64,000 nucleotides of DNA from NCBI RefSeq assembly GCF_024223415.1, contig NZ_CP100501.1; one strand, written 5' to 3'. This DNA is from Escherichia coli (GTDB taxonomy: Bacteria > Pseudomonadota > Gammaproteobacteria > Enterobacterales > Enterobacteriaceae). The translations under genes and the position numbers were made by a program. How positions within the stretch are numbered: the stretch's first letter is position 1; every line of letters starts with the position of its first letter. Under the pieces are notes generated by a model, which saw only the letters and a program-made list of their open reading frames with translations, searched no databases and had not been told where the DNA came from. This document shows positions 1 to 6,707 of this stretch, one piece after another.

Positions 1-85
1 TCTGTCGGGAACACTTTACGCTTTTTGATCGCATGGCGGATCACGCTGTTTAGCGACTCGATGGCATTCGTCGTATAGATCACTT
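1..85 (-). pseudogene. IS256-family transposase fragment (internal/C-terminal region), cut by the IS629-like insertion and continuing beyond the window edge
   Basis: Reverse-complement translation reads [30 protein letters not shown], the conserved C-terminal motif of IS256-family transposases; abuts the IS629-like left end at 86. Confidence 0.6.
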
Positions 86-139
86 TGAACCGCCCCGGAA
101 ATCCTGGAGACTAAACTTCCTGAGAAAGATGTAAACAGG

Positions 140-466
140 ATGACTAAAAATACTCGTTTTTCCCCCGAAGTCCGTCAACGGGCAGTTCGTATGGTTCTGG
201 AAAGCCAGGGCGAATATGACTCACAATGGGCGGCAATTTGTTCCATTGCTCCAAAGATTGGCTGTACGCCAGAGACCCTGCGTGTCTGGGTTCGCCAGCA
301 TGAGCGGGATACCGGGGGCGGTGATGGTGGGCTCACCACCGCTGAACGTCAGCGTCTGAAAGAGCTGGAACGCGAAAATCGTGAACTGCGCCGCAGTAAC
401 GATATCCTTCGCCAGGCTTCCGCTTATTTTGCGAAGGCGGAGTTCGACCGCCTCTGGAAAAAATAA
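140..466 (+). CDS. IS3-family transposase OrfA (IS629-like, HTH plus leucine-zipper region)
   Basis: 108-aa product [19 protein letters not shown]...; near-identical second copy at 6143..6469. Confidence 0.85.
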
Positions 467-487
467 TGCCACTGCTGGATAAGCTGC

Positions 488-1333
488 GTGAGCTGCAGTG
501 AGCTGCATATTGCCCCGTCAACGTATTACCACTGTCAGCAACAGCAGCATCATCCTGATAAACGCAGCGCCCGTGCGCAGCGTGATGACTGGCTGAAGAA
601 AGAGATACAGCGCGTATACGATGAAAATCACCAGGTGTACGGTGTGCGTAAAGTCTGGCGTCAGTTGTTACGGGAAGGTATCAGAGTGGCCAGATGCACT
701 GTGACACGTCTTATGGCGGTTATGGGTTTTGCCGGTGTTCTCCGGGGTAAAAAGGTCCGCATTACCGTCAGCCGGAAAGCCGTTGCCGCAGGCGACCGCG
801 TAAACCGTCATTTCGTGGCAGAACGTCCTGACCAGCTGTGGGTGGCTGATTTTACTTACGTCAGCACATGGCAGGGCTTTGTTTATGTGGCGTTCATCAT
901 TGATGTGTTTGCCGGATACATCGTGGGATGGCGGGTCTCCTCGTCCATGGAAACGACATTCGTGCTGGATGCACTGGAGCAGGCGTTGTGGGCCCGTCGT
1001 CCATCTGGCACCATCCATCACAGCGATAAAGGCTCTCAGTATGTATCGCTGGCCTACACGCAGCGGCTTAAGGAAGTCGGATTACTGGCATCAACAGGGA
1101 GCACAGGCGACTCGTATGACAACGCGATGGCGGAGAGCATCAATGGTCTTTACAAGGCGGAGGTAATACACCGTAAGAGCTGGAAAAACCGGACAGAAGT
1201 GGAGCTGGCTACACTCACGTGGGTGGACTGGTATAACAATCGACGATTGCTGGAAAGGCTGGGCCATACTCCCCCGGCAGAAGCAGAAAAAGCTTATTAT
1301 GCTTCCATCGGAAACAATGATCTGGCAGCCTGA
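488..1333 (+). CDS. IS3-family transposase OrfB (DDE integrase domain), N-terminus altered by the small internal deletion
   Basis: 281-aa product similar to the 296-aa OrfB at 5256..6146 but with multiple substitutions and a shortened N-terminus. Confidence 0.75.
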   Translation: MSCSELHIAPSTYYHCQQQQHHPDKRSARAQRDDWLKKEIQRVYDENHQVYGVRKVWRQLLREGIRVARCTVTRLMAVMGFAGVLRGKKVRITVSRKAVAAGDRVNRHFVAERPDQLWVADFTYVSTWQGFVYVAFIIDVFAGYIVGWRVSSSMETTFVLDALEQALWARRPSGTIHHSDKGSQYVSLAYTQRLKEVGLLASTGSTGDSYDNAMAESINGLYKAEVIHRKSWKNRTEVELATLTWVDWYNNRRLLERLGHTPPAEAEKAYYASIGNNDLAA

Positions 1334-1372
1334 GTTCACAGACAAAACATTCTCCAGGAAACCCGGGGCGGT

Positions 1373-1834
1373 TCAGTTTTGCCATTCTACAACCTGCTCC
1401 ATCACGGCATCGGTAACCTTTGATATCAGTGCCGGTGAAACATCTGCGTCATACAGTTCTTTGAACGCAGCGGCTATCTCACGGGTGGTCATCCCTTTGG
1501 CATACAACGAGAGGATCTGGTTATCCATCCCGGTAATACGGGTCTGATTTTTCTTTACCAGTTGTGGTTCGAAGGTACCGTCACGATCGCGCGGAGTACG
1601 CAGTTCCAGTGGACCGTCGCCTGTGATAACGGTCTTTGTGGAATAACCGTTGCGGGAGTTAGCTCCTGGTCTGGACTGATTTTTCTCATACCCAAGATGG
1701 TGTGTCATCTCTGCATTGAGAGCGGCTTCAACGCTGAGCTTTTTCAGCAGCCGATCAAACTGACTGAGGTCTTCAGGGGTTTTGAGGTTTTTGGCCAGTT
1801 CGTTAGCCAGAGCCTGTAACTGTTTTTCGTCCAT
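1373..1834 (-). pseudogene. IS256-family transposase N-terminal fragment (153 codons), reading frame runs into the IS629-like right end
   Basis: Product MDEKQLQALANELAKNLKTPEDLSQFDRLL...LYAKGMTTREIAAAFKELYDADVSPALISKVTDAV matches the conserved N-terminus of IS256-family transposases; the central part of the gene is absent. Confidence 0.7.
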
Positions 1835-1920
1835 AAATTAACCTTCATTTGATGCTGGATTGAACATATCAAAATCAGGCAATTACACAAATCTATGTAC
1901 AGGCTCTTCCGCTGGCTGGC

Positions 1921-2166
1921 TCACCTGCGTCGCGCCGGCTGCCAGGTAAACGTGTTCTCTGCGGCACGATACGCTTTTGTTCGTTGAGCCTTTGCGGTTC
2001 TCGCTTTGCGCTCTGCCCGAATCATTCTCAAAACTTTTACACGCACTTTTCTCTTAACTTCCCGTGGCAGTTCATCCCTGCCGGACAACTTTAACTGTGC
2101 AGCCTGTGCGGCATAAGCATCGTTGATACGCTTACGTTCTGCTTCCGTCAGTTTCATCCAAGACAT
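1921..2166 (-). CDS. hypothetical small basic protein (81 aa)
   Basis: ORF preceded by a strong AGGAGG Shine-Dalgarno about 6 nt upstream of ATG; lysine/arginine-rich product; no family recognised. Confidence 0.45.
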   Translation of the reverse strand: MSWMKLTEAERKRINDAYAAQAAQLKLSGRDELPREVKRKVRVKVLRMIRAERKARTAKAQRTKAYRAAENTFTWQPARRR

Positions 2167-2304
2167 AATTCCTCCTGGTGACTTATCCGTGTTATGTCTT
2201 TAATCTGTATCCCCTTCGTTGCTATGCCTCCGGGATATCAGGTATTACCTTTCGAAGAATTTTATAAAAAACCACCTGTGCAGAGGGAAAGAGTGGATTT
2301 GCCC

Positions 2305-4448: not shown

Positions 4449-4759
4449 CCATATAAATTACTTGCACAGCTTTTAAAAAAATTGCAAATCTTTACTGTAG
4501 TGTCGGGCTTCATGTAGCTCAACAGGGCATGGACTAAAAAGAAGTAAACCCATCTTTTATCTCCCTGATATGGGGGTCTTTGTGGCATAAAGAATTCCTT
4601 GAATTATTATTTTGATCATATCAACATGAAAAGAATAATACTCTGACTTTTGATTTCCAGTGCCAGATATAAAATCAAATTCACTGTAAATATCACATAA
4701 TGATATCTGGCTGCCCCCAGTCACTTCCTGTATTCAGCCACACATATAAGCCCCCTGAA

Positions 4760-4798
4760 TTTCCTTGTGGTTTTTATGTGATAAAAACCACAAGGAAA
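4760..4798. repeat. perfect 17-bp inverted repeat with 5-nt loop (TTTCCTTGTGGTTTTTA tgtga TAAAAACCACAAGGAAA)
   Basis: Read directly from sequence; lies in the AT-rich non-coding island. Confidence 0.6.
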
Positions 4799-4885
4799 CG
4801 ATGGTTGAAATAATATTTAAAATGTGAAAGATATCACCCGTAGAATTTTTCAATCCGACACTCCATAGAATGGACCTTTAAGATT

Positions 4886-4915
4886 TAATCCTCATCATGT
4901 ATGAGGATTTTTTTT
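4886..4915 (+). terminator. putative intrinsic terminator (AATCCTCAT/ATGAGGATT hairpin followed by T8)
   Basis: Read directly: aatcctcatcatgtatgaggatttttttt. Confidence 0.4.
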
Positions 4916-5255
4916 CTGGCAGACAAAAATATCTTTTCAGCAATCCCTGTTCAGTTCCGGTTCTGGTGACTCTGGAAGAGGTATTGTTACACGCTATAAC
5001 CTGCCGGAATGACTCAGGTCCGTTCATCTCTGATACCATTAAAAGAAGCATTAAGCACATTCTGAGCGCCTCTTACAGAAGAAGCGGAACGCGTTCCTGG
5101 CTCCTGTTGCATAATCTTACTAACCCCATGGTTTTCTTGACTGCCAGAAACGCGCCCACAGTTTTTTTAGCCTGTCTCCGGTTCCTTGTCTAGAATACTG
5201 TTGATTTTTTGTTTGAACCGCCCCGGGTTTCCTGGAGAGTGTTTTATCTGTGAAC

Positions 5256-6146
5256 TCAGGCTGCCAGATCATCGTTTCCGATGGAAGCATAATAAGCTTT
5301 TTCTGCTTCTGCCGGTGGGATATGGCCCAGCCTTTCCAGCAATCGTCGATTGTTATACCAGTCCACCCACGTGAGTGTGGCCAGCTCCACTTCTGTCCGG
5401 TTTTTCCAGCTCTTACGGTGTATTACCTCCGCTTTGTAAAGGCCATTGATGCTCTCCGCCATCGCGTTGTCATACGAGTCACCAGTACTTCCTGTTGATG
5501 CCAGTAATCCGGCTTCCTTAAGCCGCTGTGTGTAGGCCAGCGATACATACTGAGAACCTTTATCACTGTGATGGACTGTGCCGGACGGTCGACGGGCCCA
5601 TAACGCCTGCTCCAGAGCATCCAGCACGAATGTCGTTTCCATGGACGATGAGACCCGCCACCCCACGATGTATCCGGCAAACACATCAATGATGAACGCC
5701 ACATAGACGACCCCCTGCCATGTGCTGACGTAAGTAAAATCAGCCACCCACAACTGGTCAGGACGTTCTGCCACAAACTGACGGTTTACGCGGTCGCCTG
5801 CGGCAACGGCTTTCCGGCTGACGGTAGTGCGGACCTTTTTACCCCGGAGAACACCGGCAAGTCCCATAACCGCTATGAGGCGCGCCACTGTACATCTGGC
5901 TACCCTGATTCCTTCCCGTAACAACTGACGCCAGACTTTACGCACACCGTATACCTGATGATTCCCATCGTATACGCGCAGTATCTCTTTCTTCAGCCAG
6001 TCATCGCGCTGCGCACGGGCACTGCGTTTATAAGGATGATGTCGCTGTTGCTGACAGTGGTAATACGTTGACGGGGCAATATGTAGTTCACTGCATACCG
6101 GTCCGACCCCGTACAGCTTACGCAGCTTATCCAGCAGTGGCATCAC
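5256..6146 (-). CDS. IS3-family transposase OrfB (IS629-like), intact length
   Basis: 296-aa product with DDE-type integrase region; overlaps orfA as usual for IS3-family frameshift expression. Confidence 0.85.
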
Positions 6147-6469
6147 TTTTTCCAGAGGCGGTCGAACTCCGCCTTCGCAAAATAAGCGGAAGCCTGGCGA
6201 AGGATATCGTTACTGCGGCGCAGTTCACGATTTTCACGTTCCAGCTCTTTCAGACGCTGACGTTCAGCGGTGGTGAGCCCGCCATCACCGCCTCCGGTAT
6301 CCCGCTCATGCTGGCGTACCCAGACACGCAGGGTCTCTGGCGTACAGCCAATCTTTGGAGCAATGGAACAAATTGCCGCCCACTGTGAGTCATATTCGCC
6401 CTGACTTTCCAGAACCATACGAATCGCCCTCTGACGGACTTCGGGGGAAAAACGAGTATTTTTAGTCAT
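6143..6469 (-). CDS. IS3-family transposase OrfA (IS629-like)
   Basis: 108-aa product differing from the 140..466 copy at one residue (V16I). Confidence 0.85.
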
Positions 6470-6523
6470 TCTGTTTACCTCTTTCTCAGGGAGTTTAGTC
6501 TCCAGGATTCCCGGGGCGGTTCA

Positions 6524-6707
6524 GCGTGATCCGCCATGCGATCAAAAAGCGTAAAGTGTTCCCGACAGACGACTCGGTGAAAAAAGTGGTGTGGCTGGCA
6601 ATCCAGTCTGCGTCCCGGAAATGGACGATGCCGTTGAAGGACTGGCGAATGGCAATGAGCCGCTTTATTATCGAGTTCGGTGACCGCCTGGACGGTCACT
6701 TCTGAGA
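6524..6707 (+). pseudogene. IS256-family transposase C-terminal fragment abutting the IS629-like copy 2
   Basis: In-frame translation VIRHAIKKRKVFPTDDSVKKVVWLAIQSASRKWTMPLKDWRMAMSRFIIEFGDRLDGHF-stop; shares about 45 bp with the window-start fragment in inverted orientation. Confidence 0.65.

Follow-up and report, generated by a model that had tools for sequence, protein, structure and literature searches.

A probable decayed IS1414 composite insertion, interrupted by two IS629-group variants, in the mazF-trbC spacer of an IncK2/Z-type conjugative plasmid

Results

The window, a stretch of 64,000 nucleotides from Escherichia coli (contig NZ_CP100501.1), begins with a nest of mobile elements that occupies positions 1-6746. 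A large open reading frame beside the nest (6993-9266) corresponds to trbC as annotated in relatives. The features of the nest are as follows.

1..85, minus strand: IS1414 (IS256 family), a segment from the 3' end of the transposase gene (nt 1061-1145), 100% identical to IS1414 of pE15-3
86..1375, plus strand: IS629-group element, variant c1, 1290 bp, matching IS3-family transposase models, with terminal inverted repeats (TIRs) at 86-110 and 1351-1375
1376..1906, minus strand: IS1414 nt 1-531, left end and transposase codons 1-153, 99.4% identical to IS1414 of pE15-3, with an IS256-family model match
1907..2293, minus strand: cargo beside the IS1414 left end, identical adjacency in every relative
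2294..3624, minus strand: IS2, 1331 bp, matching TnpA and TnpB models (275 and 699 bits)
3625..5213, no strand: AT-rich cargo with no recognised gene
5214..6523, minus strand: IS629-group element, variant c2, 1310 bp, apparently intact, matching IS3-family transposase models, with a full pseudoknot
6524..6738, plus strand: IS1414 nt 1100-1314, 3' end of the transposase gene and right terminal repeat, 100% identical to IS1414 of pE15-3
6527..6535, plus strand: TGATCCGCC, an 8/9 match to the IS629-group terminal 9-mer TGAACCGCC, from a scan of both IS1414 strands
6739..6746, no strand: AAGTGAAG, right-hand member of the 8-bp target duplication around the whole nest

Junctions were mapped on a full-length IS1414 (1314 bp) taken from plasmid pE15-3. 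The nest ends on both sides in IS1414 right ends that face outward, and these are bracketed by a single 8-bp duplication, AAGTGAAG. Its left copy adjoins mazF just outside the window and was read in pCh101; in the nearest relatives (pCh101 and pGF60-A), IS1414 extends ∼170 bp to the left of the window up to its right end, followed by the duplication and mazF. On the other side, the IS1414 tail, which a previous sequence-only reading had ended at 6707, runs to 6738. In the relative pRM10042-1, where the site is uninterrupted, AAGTGAAG is present once. Comparison with an IS1414 copy from an unrelated context places the left end of IS1414 at 1906, as does its terminal repeat, which starts GAGCCTGT. 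This terminal repeat and the 8-bp duplication are those of IS1414, an IS256-family element with astA/EAST1 inside its transposase gene, and the fragments are 99.4-100% identical to RefSeq-named IS1414 copies; unlike these, only three fragments are left here (nt 1-531, nt 1061-1145 onward, and nt 1100-1314). That sequence-only reading had recognised neither the IS2 nor the third IS1414 fragment, nor the enclosing IS1414 composite between its two duplicated 8-mers.

Tn4001 is a composite transposon of inverted IS256-family copies. Similarly, an inverted IS256-family pair here brackets foreign DNA, with one 8-bp duplication around the whole; unlike in Tn4001-type composites, both IS copies are broken, no selectable gene is recognisable in the cargo, and the composite is known from one site only, so that it is the duplication alone that suggests movement as a unit. 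Among the relatives, none keeps two full IS1414 copies. The cargo next to the IS1414 left end contains a conserved 81-aa open reading frame (1921-2166), annotated as a hypothetical protein (WP_045148228.1) and with no NCBIfam match. The stretch at 3625-5213, within which Rfam gave no match, matches unannotated DNA of 8.9-kb ColE1-like colicin plasmids at ∼80% identity. IS2 is a simple insertion, flanked by a 5-bp duplication, AAGAG (2289-2293 and 3625-3629), and its site, GGGAAAGAGTAAGG, is unbroken in pE15-3. Taken jointly, these features are best explained by a decayed IS1414 composite that had inserted between mazF and trbC on a conjugative plasmid of IncK2/Z type, with window positions 1-6746 covering its right-hand 97%, a reading to which we give a probability of about 0.8.

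As assessed by pairwise alignment, the two IS629-like copies are, as the sequence-only reading had proposed, diverged and inverted: they are 94.2% identical over aligned bases, differing by 75 substitutions and by a single stretch of 20 bp that is deleted from copy 1 (alignment columns 409-428). The ends at 86 and 6523 stand as first given, while the other two move from 1374 to 1375 and from 5216 to 5214. Both copies have the hallmarks of the IS629/IS1203/IS3411 group of the IS3 family, i.e. a size of ∼1.3 kb, TG...CA ends (TGAACC...GGTTCA in copy 1), ∼25-bp TIRs, overlapping orfA and orfB, an ALIL frameshift pseudoknot and an IS3-family DDE transposase. Copy 2 contains orfA (6143-6469), orfB (5256-6146) and a complete ALIL pseudoknot (6072-6188) scoring 116 bits, versus 63.8 bits in copy 1 (421-507). 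Frame analysis shows that the deletion in copy 1 takes out part of the pseudoknot and that orfB is no longer in the -1 frame; copy 1 is a defective, non-autonomous element. Copy 2 is 94.5% identical to IS629 of Sakai pO157, and c1 and c2 are each ∼94-95% identical to that IS629 and to a copy annotated IS1203. Judged by these identities, c1 and c2 are distinct sister variants, not IS629 itself. Neither copy in the window retains the 3-bp target duplication typical of the group, the flanks being CTT/GTT (copy 1) and GTT/GCG (copy 2); a search for such duplications, suggested earlier, thus came back empty for the window.

The left ends of both copies meet IS1414, copy 1 at nt 1061 and copy 2 at nt 1100, and the copies share one orientation relative to IS1414. 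Window positions 1-48 are the exact reverse complement of 6522-6569 (46 bases of IS1414 and 2 bases of IS end), which bears out the earlier claim of ∼45 bp of common IS256-family sequence. The claimed offset of ∼40 bp is 39 bp on intact IS1414; the two fragments both come from the 3' part of IS1414, and their junctions are not identical. At its right end, copy 1 also meets IS1414 (nt 531..1). Between the two IS1414 pieces around copy 1 there is a gap, nt 532-1060 having been lost; beside copy 2, comparison with pE15-3 shows the loss of IS1414 nt 1-1099 together with at least 1 kb of cargo. Since astA, at nt 788-904 of IS1414 in pE15-3, falls within the lost nucleotides, this plasmid region encodes no EAST1. 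In pE15-3, pLH10-b-1-A and similar plasmids, a full-length 1314-bp IS1414 with astA lies beside trbC.

In its present form, the nest consists of inverted arms of ∼1.35-1.56 kb, each an IS629-like copy with its IS1414 tail, around a 3.8-kb segment. Plasmids of the pE15-3 type have the same c1/IS1414-1061 junction beside mazF, with the cargo in the opposite orientation; the inner segment of the window is thus inverted relative to this more intact arrangement. Besides c1, plasmid pEF5-18-41_2 contains a c2-type element inserted cleanly into IS1414, where nt 290-292 are duplicated (3 bp, as expected for the group). It forms a pair of inversion isomers with pNDM_M25631H, in which the segment between the copies is inverted and the copies are reciprocal hybrids (c1/c2 and c2/c1). 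Likewise, the central segment lies in opposite orientations to the backbone in pCh101, whose right copy is a c1/c2 hybrid, and in pCFSAN083829_2, which has two identical hybrid copies that switch type within the longest identical run (89 bp). In pEGY2 both copies are c2-type, and its left copy, like pCFSAN083829_2, shows near-full-length copy replacement with unchanged junctions. Reciprocal hybrids and flipped segments are what homologous recombination between inverted IS copies produces, and in these related plasmids the inverted arms evidently recombine and flip the DNA between them.

Could a dedicated site-specific recombinase instead flip the 3.8-kb segment as a programmed switch, as in a shufflon or Hin/Gin system? 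Inverted repeats do flank the segment, and both orientations occur among relatives. However, we found no recombinase gene in or beside the segment, all open reading frames with a family assignment in 1-6746 being transposases; the repeats are transposable elements that are 6% diverged rather than short recombination sites; and crossover points vary from plasmid to plasmid (a group II intron, the 89-bp identical run and the region near column 1050) and fall inside long homology. These findings effectively refute a switch.

The earlier suggestion of an inversion and deletion history mediated by the IS629 pair holds in part, in that the deletions are real and the segment inverts in relatives. In the window itself the copies are pure c1 and pure c2, with no hybrids, and a c1 × c2 crossover is therefore not visible here. 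Such a crossover could still lie at the origin of the arrangement if, in a pE15-3-like ancestor, c2 had entered the trbC-side IS1414, a reciprocal c1 × c2 inversion and IS-end deletions had followed, and conversions had restored the pure types. The same event in a sister lineage (pEF5-18-41_2 to pNDM_M25631H), the inner segment of the window, which is oriented to mazF and trbC as in pNDM_M25631H, and the frequency of conversions in the lineage all speak for this. Against it, copy 1 is c1-type at all 95 diagnostic columns and 99.6% identical to c1 of pE15-3, c2-type copies of relatives agree with copy 2 at nearly all columns by the same typing, and the crossover must either fall in the last 25 bp or have been erased later. 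We regard this origin as possible but unlikely. Alternatively, the route from a pE15-3-like ancestor could run via an IS1414 × IS1414 flip before truncation.

A scan of 5,426 complete E. coli genomes gave no instance of the c2/IS1414-1100 junction, which is known from this window only. This, and the fact that 1.3-kb inverted repeats are a classic source of misassembly, would fit an artefact in which repeated IS copies were collapsed or misjoined. Yet independent complete plasmids (pGF60-A, pCh101 and pEGY2) share all the other junctions, namely those at both ends of c1, that between the right end of copy 2 and the cargo, and the IS2 site, and only 4 bp separate the unique junction from its pCh101 counterpart. 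We therefore consider an artefact highly improbable.

Left-end junctions on IS1414 form a nested series, at nt 1061, 1070, 1096 and 1100 and past the IS1414 end, in which 9, 35, 39 and, for the right copy of pEGY2, 232 bases are deleted relative to nt 1061. The series resembles the product of microdeletions beside the IS end, with microhomologies of 1-3 nt; because microhomologies at the IS-end deletions are short (0-3 nt), the mechanism of deletion is one that we infer. In a passage of PMC9943667 that cites Kusumoto 2011, deletions adjacent to IS629, ranging from a few nucleotides to >40 kb, are documented and said to be promoted by the transposase together with IEE, the IS-excision enhancer. 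The deletions seen here, nested ones of 4-39 bp and others of at least 0.5 kb, similarly start exactly at IS ends. Given the nested series, the 39-bp offset could be secondary. Both IS629/IS1414 junctions would then descend from a single ancestral junction at nt 1061, with an arm copied or moved across to the opposite side and inverted, a deletion between the imperfect direct repeats GATCACGCTG and GATCACTT+TG (TG being the IS end), and the right IS body later becoming c2 by gene conversion. These repeats match at 8/10 positions and bracket the 39 bp exactly, and the copy replacements in pEGY2 and pCFSAN083829_2 offer precedents for the conversion. Nevertheless, we know of no simple way in which an arm could be duplicated in inverted orientation with its limit exactly at the IS end, copy 2 is already c2-type at a diagnostic site 14 nt from its junction, and more steps are needed than for two insertions. 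We thus find a single ancestral junction doubtful and tentatively favor two insertions.

Discussion

For the decayed IS1414 composite, we infer the following order of events, including the independence of the two IS629/IS1414 insertions. The ancestor would have consisted of two inverted IS1414 copies, right ends outward, carrying AT-rich cargo of small-plasmid origin, ∼3 kb or more in length, and would have entered by one IS256-type transposition that duplicated the 8 bp. Two IS629-group variants would then have inserted, one per IS1414 copy and in the same orientation relative to it: the defective c1 at nt 1061 of the mazF-side copy and the intact c2 at nt 1100 of the trbC-side copy. IS2 would have inserted into the cargo. 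Deletions from the inner (right) ends of the IS629-like elements then removed IS1414 nt 532-1060, including astA/EAST1, beside c1, and IS1414 nt 1-1099 with at least 1 kb of cargo on the c2 side, while small deletions would have eroded the IS1414 tail at the outer (left) ends. The arms serve as substrates for ordinary homologous recombination, which yields central flips, hybrid IS copies and arm homogenisation. The nest is a pile-up of mobile elements, an instance of ordinary IS-driven plasmid plasticity. We saw no evidence that the nested structure benefits the plasmid, and it looks like a by-product of IS activity.

We estimate that two independent insertions in the same orientation and 39 bp apart in a 1.3-kb element have a ∼3% chance in the absence of target preference. 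Repeated targeting of the IS256-family gene, also suggested by the sequence-only reading, gains from the third, clean insertion at nt 290-292 in sister plasmids and loses from the nested junctions, by which the offset could be secondary. When OrfA is in short supply, IS911 reportedly makes targeted insertions beside its own ends or sequences resembling them. The likeness to that behaviour is one of sequence here: the copy 1 site has TGATC only, and, unlike in IS911 targeting, the geometry differs between two sites (inverted versus direct). TGATCCGCC, the sole match of at least 8/9 to TGAACCGCC on either strand of IS1414, lies 3 bp from the left end of copy 2 and is inverted relative to that end, and the c2-type insertion at nt 290-292 overlaps a 7/9 match. 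Two of the three best matches to the terminal 9-mer in IS1414 are thus at insertion sites.

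Two diverged IS629-like copies in inverted orientation

ORF and repeat lists for window 1-7500 bear out the proposal, made from the sequence alone, that the region carries two IS3-family elements inverted relative to each other.

86-1375, + strand: copy 1, IS3-family element with ends TGAACC...GGTTCA
5214-6523, - strand: copy 2, IS3-family element with ends TGAACC...GGTTCA

Their 25-bp terminal inverted repeats (TG...CA) are 88 and 92% complementary. OrfB matches the IS3-family DDE transposase model NF033516 with 295 bits in copy 1 and 304 bits in copy 2, and orfA matches too. 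As had been noticed earlier, the copies are diverged and copy 1 has an internal deletion: 75 substitutions and a 20-bp deletion in copy 1 separate them, with 94.2% identity over aligned bases. Both orfA and orfB are intact in copy 2, in which the −1 frameshift signal is present, with a full ALIL frameshift pseudoknot (RF01497, 116 bits). In copy 1, this signal is degraded (63.8 bits, 20 bp lost) and the body of orfB is outside the −1 frame after the deletion, so this copy cannot make its own transposase. Rfam analysis of 1-7000 gave nothing beyond the two ALIL matches.

By the ISfinder convention, isoforms share at least ~95% nucleotide identity with the reference element. When compared with the IS629 annotated on Sakai pO157, copy 1 is 93.0% identical (gap included) and copy 2 is 94.5% identical, and identity to the copy that RefSeq calls IS1203 is about 94.6%. 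Neither copy thus reaches the identity of at least ~95% that defines IS629 sensu stricto, and because both are ~94-95% identical to these two elements, IS629-like is the right naming level. Apart from a 333-bp IS2 fragment (28821-29153), no further donor copy was found in the window. There is no 3-bp target duplication at either copy, the flanks being CTT/GTT for copy 1 and GTT/GCG for copy 2, which is expected after adjacent deletion.

The copies are embedded in a decayed IS1414 composite insertion

The IS256-family fragments adjoining the two copies are related, as the sequence-only reading supposed, since all map on IS1414, in three pieces. They are 99.4-100% identical to copies named IS1414 in RefSeq, and the IS256-family transposase model NF033543 matches a 153-aa N-terminal fragment with 119 bits. 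As reference, we used the full-length copy of plasmid pE15-3 (1314 bp, terminal repeats starting with GAGCCTGT), whose left end we placed by reference to the IS1414 of an unrelated plasmid. Nucleotide (nt) positions in IS1414 refer to this copy.

1-85, - strand: IS1414 nt 1145..1061
1376-1906, - strand: IS1414 nt 531..1
6524-6738, + strand: IS1414 nt 1100-1314

The left, outer ends of the IS629-like copies abut IS1414 at nt 1061 (copy 1) and nt 1100 (copy 2), i.e. 39 bp apart and in the same relative orientation, in agreement with the ~40 bp first estimated. Likewise, the ~45 bp seen beside both left ends are real, with window 1-48 the exact complement of 6522-6569. The right end of copy 1, which had gone unnoticed, joins IS1414 nt 531. 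The pieces around copy 1 are therefore non-contiguous, nt 532-1060 being gone, and a simple insertion into one IS1414 is rejected by the 529 bp missing between the flanking pieces and the absence of a 3-bp duplication. We also discarded microhomology at this junction: the BLAST alignment continues for 3 bp beyond it, but with a mismatch at one of these positions. The astA gene (EAST1), which corresponds to nt 788-904 of the full pE15-3 IS1414, is deleted in the window. These IS1414 remnants lack EAST1, and inferring astA from the presence of IS1414 would be wrong for this plasmid.

The whole nest (window 1-6746 and a short leftward continuation) lies between mazF and trbC and is bounded by two IS1414 right ends facing outward. 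The window begins ~170 bp inside the left arm, which ends at the IS1414 right end beside mazF, as seen in the nearest relatives pGF60-A (99.9% identical) and pCh101 (98.4% identical), both IncK2/Z-type plasmids from poultry. The 8-bp target duplication AAGTGAAG flanks the nest left and right, with a single AAGTGAAG in the uninterrupted mazF-trbC spacer of pRM10042-1. Together with the two outward right ends, this is the signature of one IS256-type transposition that moved a unit with inverted IS1414 at its two ends. That one composite insertion took place is firm, and two outward IS1414 right ends with one 8-bp duplication around the unit make it a composite transposon. We found no such composite at a second site: in the mapped relatives with IS1414 flanking the cargo, i.e. 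the AT-rich DNA inside the nest, the location is always mazF-trbC.

The interval between the IS629-like copies holds the 5' piece of IS1414, a 387-bp stretch with an 81-aa ORF, an IS2, and 1.6 kb of AT-rich DNA.

1921-2166, - strand: lysine/arginine-rich 81-aa ORF, conserved (WP_045148228.1 in relatives)
2294-3624: IS2, 1331 bp, TnpB/TnpA (NF006918, 699 bits; NF006928, 275 bits)
3625-5213: AT-rich DNA, 1.6 kb, no recognised gene

The 81-aa ORF at 1921-2166 has no NCBIfam match, and WP_045148228.1 always directly adjoins the IS1414 left end. The IS2 is flanked by a 5-bp duplication (AAGAG), and pE15-3 has this site without the insertion. A 333-bp IS2 fragment also occurs at 28821-29153; its identity to nt 1-333 of the IS2 at 2294-3624 is 97%. 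Over 1.5 kb, the AT-rich DNA shares ~80% identity with DNA that carries no annotation and lies between mbeD and a transposase remnant in 8.9-kb ColE1-like colicin plasmids, which are present in many poultry E. coli. For a sequence without an annotated feature, this conservation is strong. RefSeq sometimes calls a hypothetical ORF of 108-128 aa in 3625-5213.

Inverted arms recombine in related plasmids

We mapped the nest parts by BLAST onto 16 related loci, and typed every IS629-like copy at the alignment columns that separate copy 1 from copy 2, 95 in all (75 for substitutions, 20 for the indel). The most intact arrangements are those of pE15-3, pLH10-b-1-A, and pF1022-2, which share the copy 1/nt-1061 junction beside mazF. 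A full-length IS1414 is present beside trbC in pE15-3 and pLH10-b-1-A. In pF1022-2, only IS1414 nt 1-779 remain, adjoining ISCro1, in a locus without the trbC flank. The cargo of this group is in opposite orientation to the window, ~1 kb longer, and contains IS100.

Plasmid pEF5-18-41_2 has the pE15-3 arrangement plus a copy 2-type element cleanly inserted in the full-length IS1414, with a 3-bp duplication (nt 290-292). Its inversion isomer is pNDM_M25631H, in which the segment between the IS629-like copies is flipped and the copies are reciprocal copy 1/copy 2 and copy 2/copy 1 hybrids, both switching at a group II intron. The pNDM_M25631H arrangement is direct evidence of a reciprocal crossover between inverted copies, and the position of the switch suggests a crossover inside the intron.

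Related locus L008, 7147-9410 and 16936-19199: group II intron (ltrA) in IS629-like copies
Related locus L010, 16938-19198: group II intron (ltrA) in an IS629-like copy

The intron is at the same position in these copies, one of pEF5-18-41_2 and both of pNDM_M25631H.

The window lineage comprises the window, pGF60-A, pCh101, pEGY2, and pCFSAN083829_2. The junction of the copy 2 right end with the cargo (5213/5214) is common to all five, and the copy 1 right junction at nt 531 to four, being deleted in pCFSAN083829_2. The left-end junctions vary: they are at nt 1061, 1070, 1096 (found in both arms) or 1100, or a deletion of 232 bp has gone past the IS1414 end. The right copy of pCh101 is copy 1-type to column 1042 and copy 2-type from column 1081; both copies of pEGY2 are copy 2-type; and pCFSAN083829_2 has two identical hybrids that switch inside the longest (89-bp) identical run. 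The central segment of pCFSAN083829_2 is also in opposite orientation to the backbone when compared with pCh101 and the window. As these varied junctions, hybrid copies and flipped segment show, the arms cross over, convert each other, and shed anything between a few and a few hundred bp at the IS ends.

A programmed switch of the shufflon or Hin/Gin type is rejected because a recombinase gene is absent nearby (none among the ORFs of 1-6746, nor in the gene annotation flanking the nest in relatives) and crossover points vary within long homology. An assembly artefact is rejected because every junction but copy 2/nt 1100 recurs in independent complete plasmids; that junction differs from the one in pCh101 by 4 bp only, and has no exact match in 5,426 complete E. 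coli genomes.

Two further sets of loci were noted. In AR_0085, pXDL-2, and pPKF4, the same AT-rich cargo lies between inverted IS629-group copies, one truncated copy 2-type and one copy 1-type, on a related backbone without IS1414 or mazEF. The copy 1 right end there cuts 60 bp into the IS100 that is complete in pE15-3. Two readings fit this arrangement: the end of an IS629 suffered another nested deletion, or the cargo moved as a unit with IS629 at its borders. Separately, pGF60-A and p135-2, which are from different nest sub-lineages, share an ISCro1 position.

Related loci L003, 9395-12093, and L011, 4071-6769: ISCro1 abutting IS1414 nt 1135 (1314-bp scale), in pGF60-A and p135-2

This suggests plasmid-to-plasmid exchange or a preferred ISCro1 site.

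As an IS nest on a conjugative plasmid, the structure is of a common kind, with known elements as its parts and known processes behind its shape, and we see no function for it. Its relatives offer a natural record of how inverted IS behave (reciprocal crossover, gene conversion, and end-adjacent deletion) without revealing a new principle. In practice, inverted arms of 1.3-1.5 kb make the region prone to misassembly and real isomerism, and orientation differences in the nest should not be taken as phylogenetic signal in plasmid comparisons.

Origin of the window arrangement

Beyond the composite insertion, two points are firm. Copy 1 at nt 1061 predates the split of the pE15-3 group from the window lineage, because both have an identical junction there. 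In addition, the inner segment is inverted between the two groups, and DNA was lost beside both inner IS629 ends. The route is not firm. The sequence-only reading offered repeated targeting of one gene or an inversion and deletion mediated by the IS629 pair, and each idea captures part of the history.

In the route that we prefer, copy 1 would have entered the mazF-side IS1414, after which IS1414 nt 532-1060 would have been lost beside its right end. Copy 2 would have entered the trbC-side IS1414 independently, at nt 1100, with loss of all DNA from there to where the cargo now ends. The orientation difference from pE15-3 would stem from recombination between the IS1414 copies at a time when both were still long. 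This route has no need of hybrid copies, but two independent insertions only 39 bp apart in the same orientation have, by our own estimate, a ~3% chance without target preference. The sequence gives arguments in two directions here, some for such a preference and some for a secondary deletion. We give independent insertions a probability of roughly 50%, and two alternatives share the rest about equally.

One of these is that there was a single junction, at nt 1061, that was later modified, of which nt 1100 could be a deletion product. GATCACGCTG and GATCACTT followed by TG lie on either side of the 39 bp, the other variants of the junction clearly arose from nt 1061 by microdeletion, and a passage of PMC9943667 documents IS629-adjacent deletions whose size ranges between a few nucleotides and >40 000, with the IS-excision enhancer. 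We reject the nt 290-292 insertion of the sister plasmids as the source of the nt 1100 junction, since the window retains IS1414 nt 293-531, which would be lost on that route. The other alternative is a crossover between copies 1 and 2, as in pNDM_M25631H, later erased by conversion. Deletions in the window and flipping in relatives agree with an IS629-mediated history, but no exchange is visible in the window itself: typing at the 95 columns found no reciprocal hybrids, the copies being pure copy 1 and pure copy 2.

A possible target preference

We judged end-likeness in IS1414 against the IS629-group end sequence TGAACCGCC. The only match of at least 8/9 to the terminal 9-mer is TGATCCGCC at nt 1103-1111, which lies 3 bp from the end of copy 2 and is inverted to it. 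There are two 7-of-9 matches, one of which overlaps the nt 290-292 insertion site. With an inverted 8-of-9 terminal copy 3 bp away, the copy 2 end looks like the junction of abutted ends in an IS circle. It also recalls IS911, which reportedly inserts next to end-like sequences. By this analogy, IS629-group elements might home to IS1414 sequences that mimic their own termini, which we consider improbable; as a lead read from the sequence, a target preference is possible and would be mildly new, although post hoc. If true, it would be a natural case of end-targeted insertion, a pathway that laboratory work described for IS911, and would explain one IS repeatedly landing in another. At 41957-41965, a 9-mer equals the IS end, but similarity stops there and we dismissed it as a chance match.

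A hairpin downstream of trbC

6781-6849: inverted repeat (31 bp, perfect; loop of 7 nt), located ~140 nt downstream of the trbC stop

The RNA fold of this stretch has −65.7 kcal/mol (z = −12.8), and a T-run is absent. It matches many IncI-complex plasmids, and in pRM10042-1, which has the empty site, it is replaced by ~200 unrelated bp. The motif GACATCCTCCA is repeated around 6770-6990.
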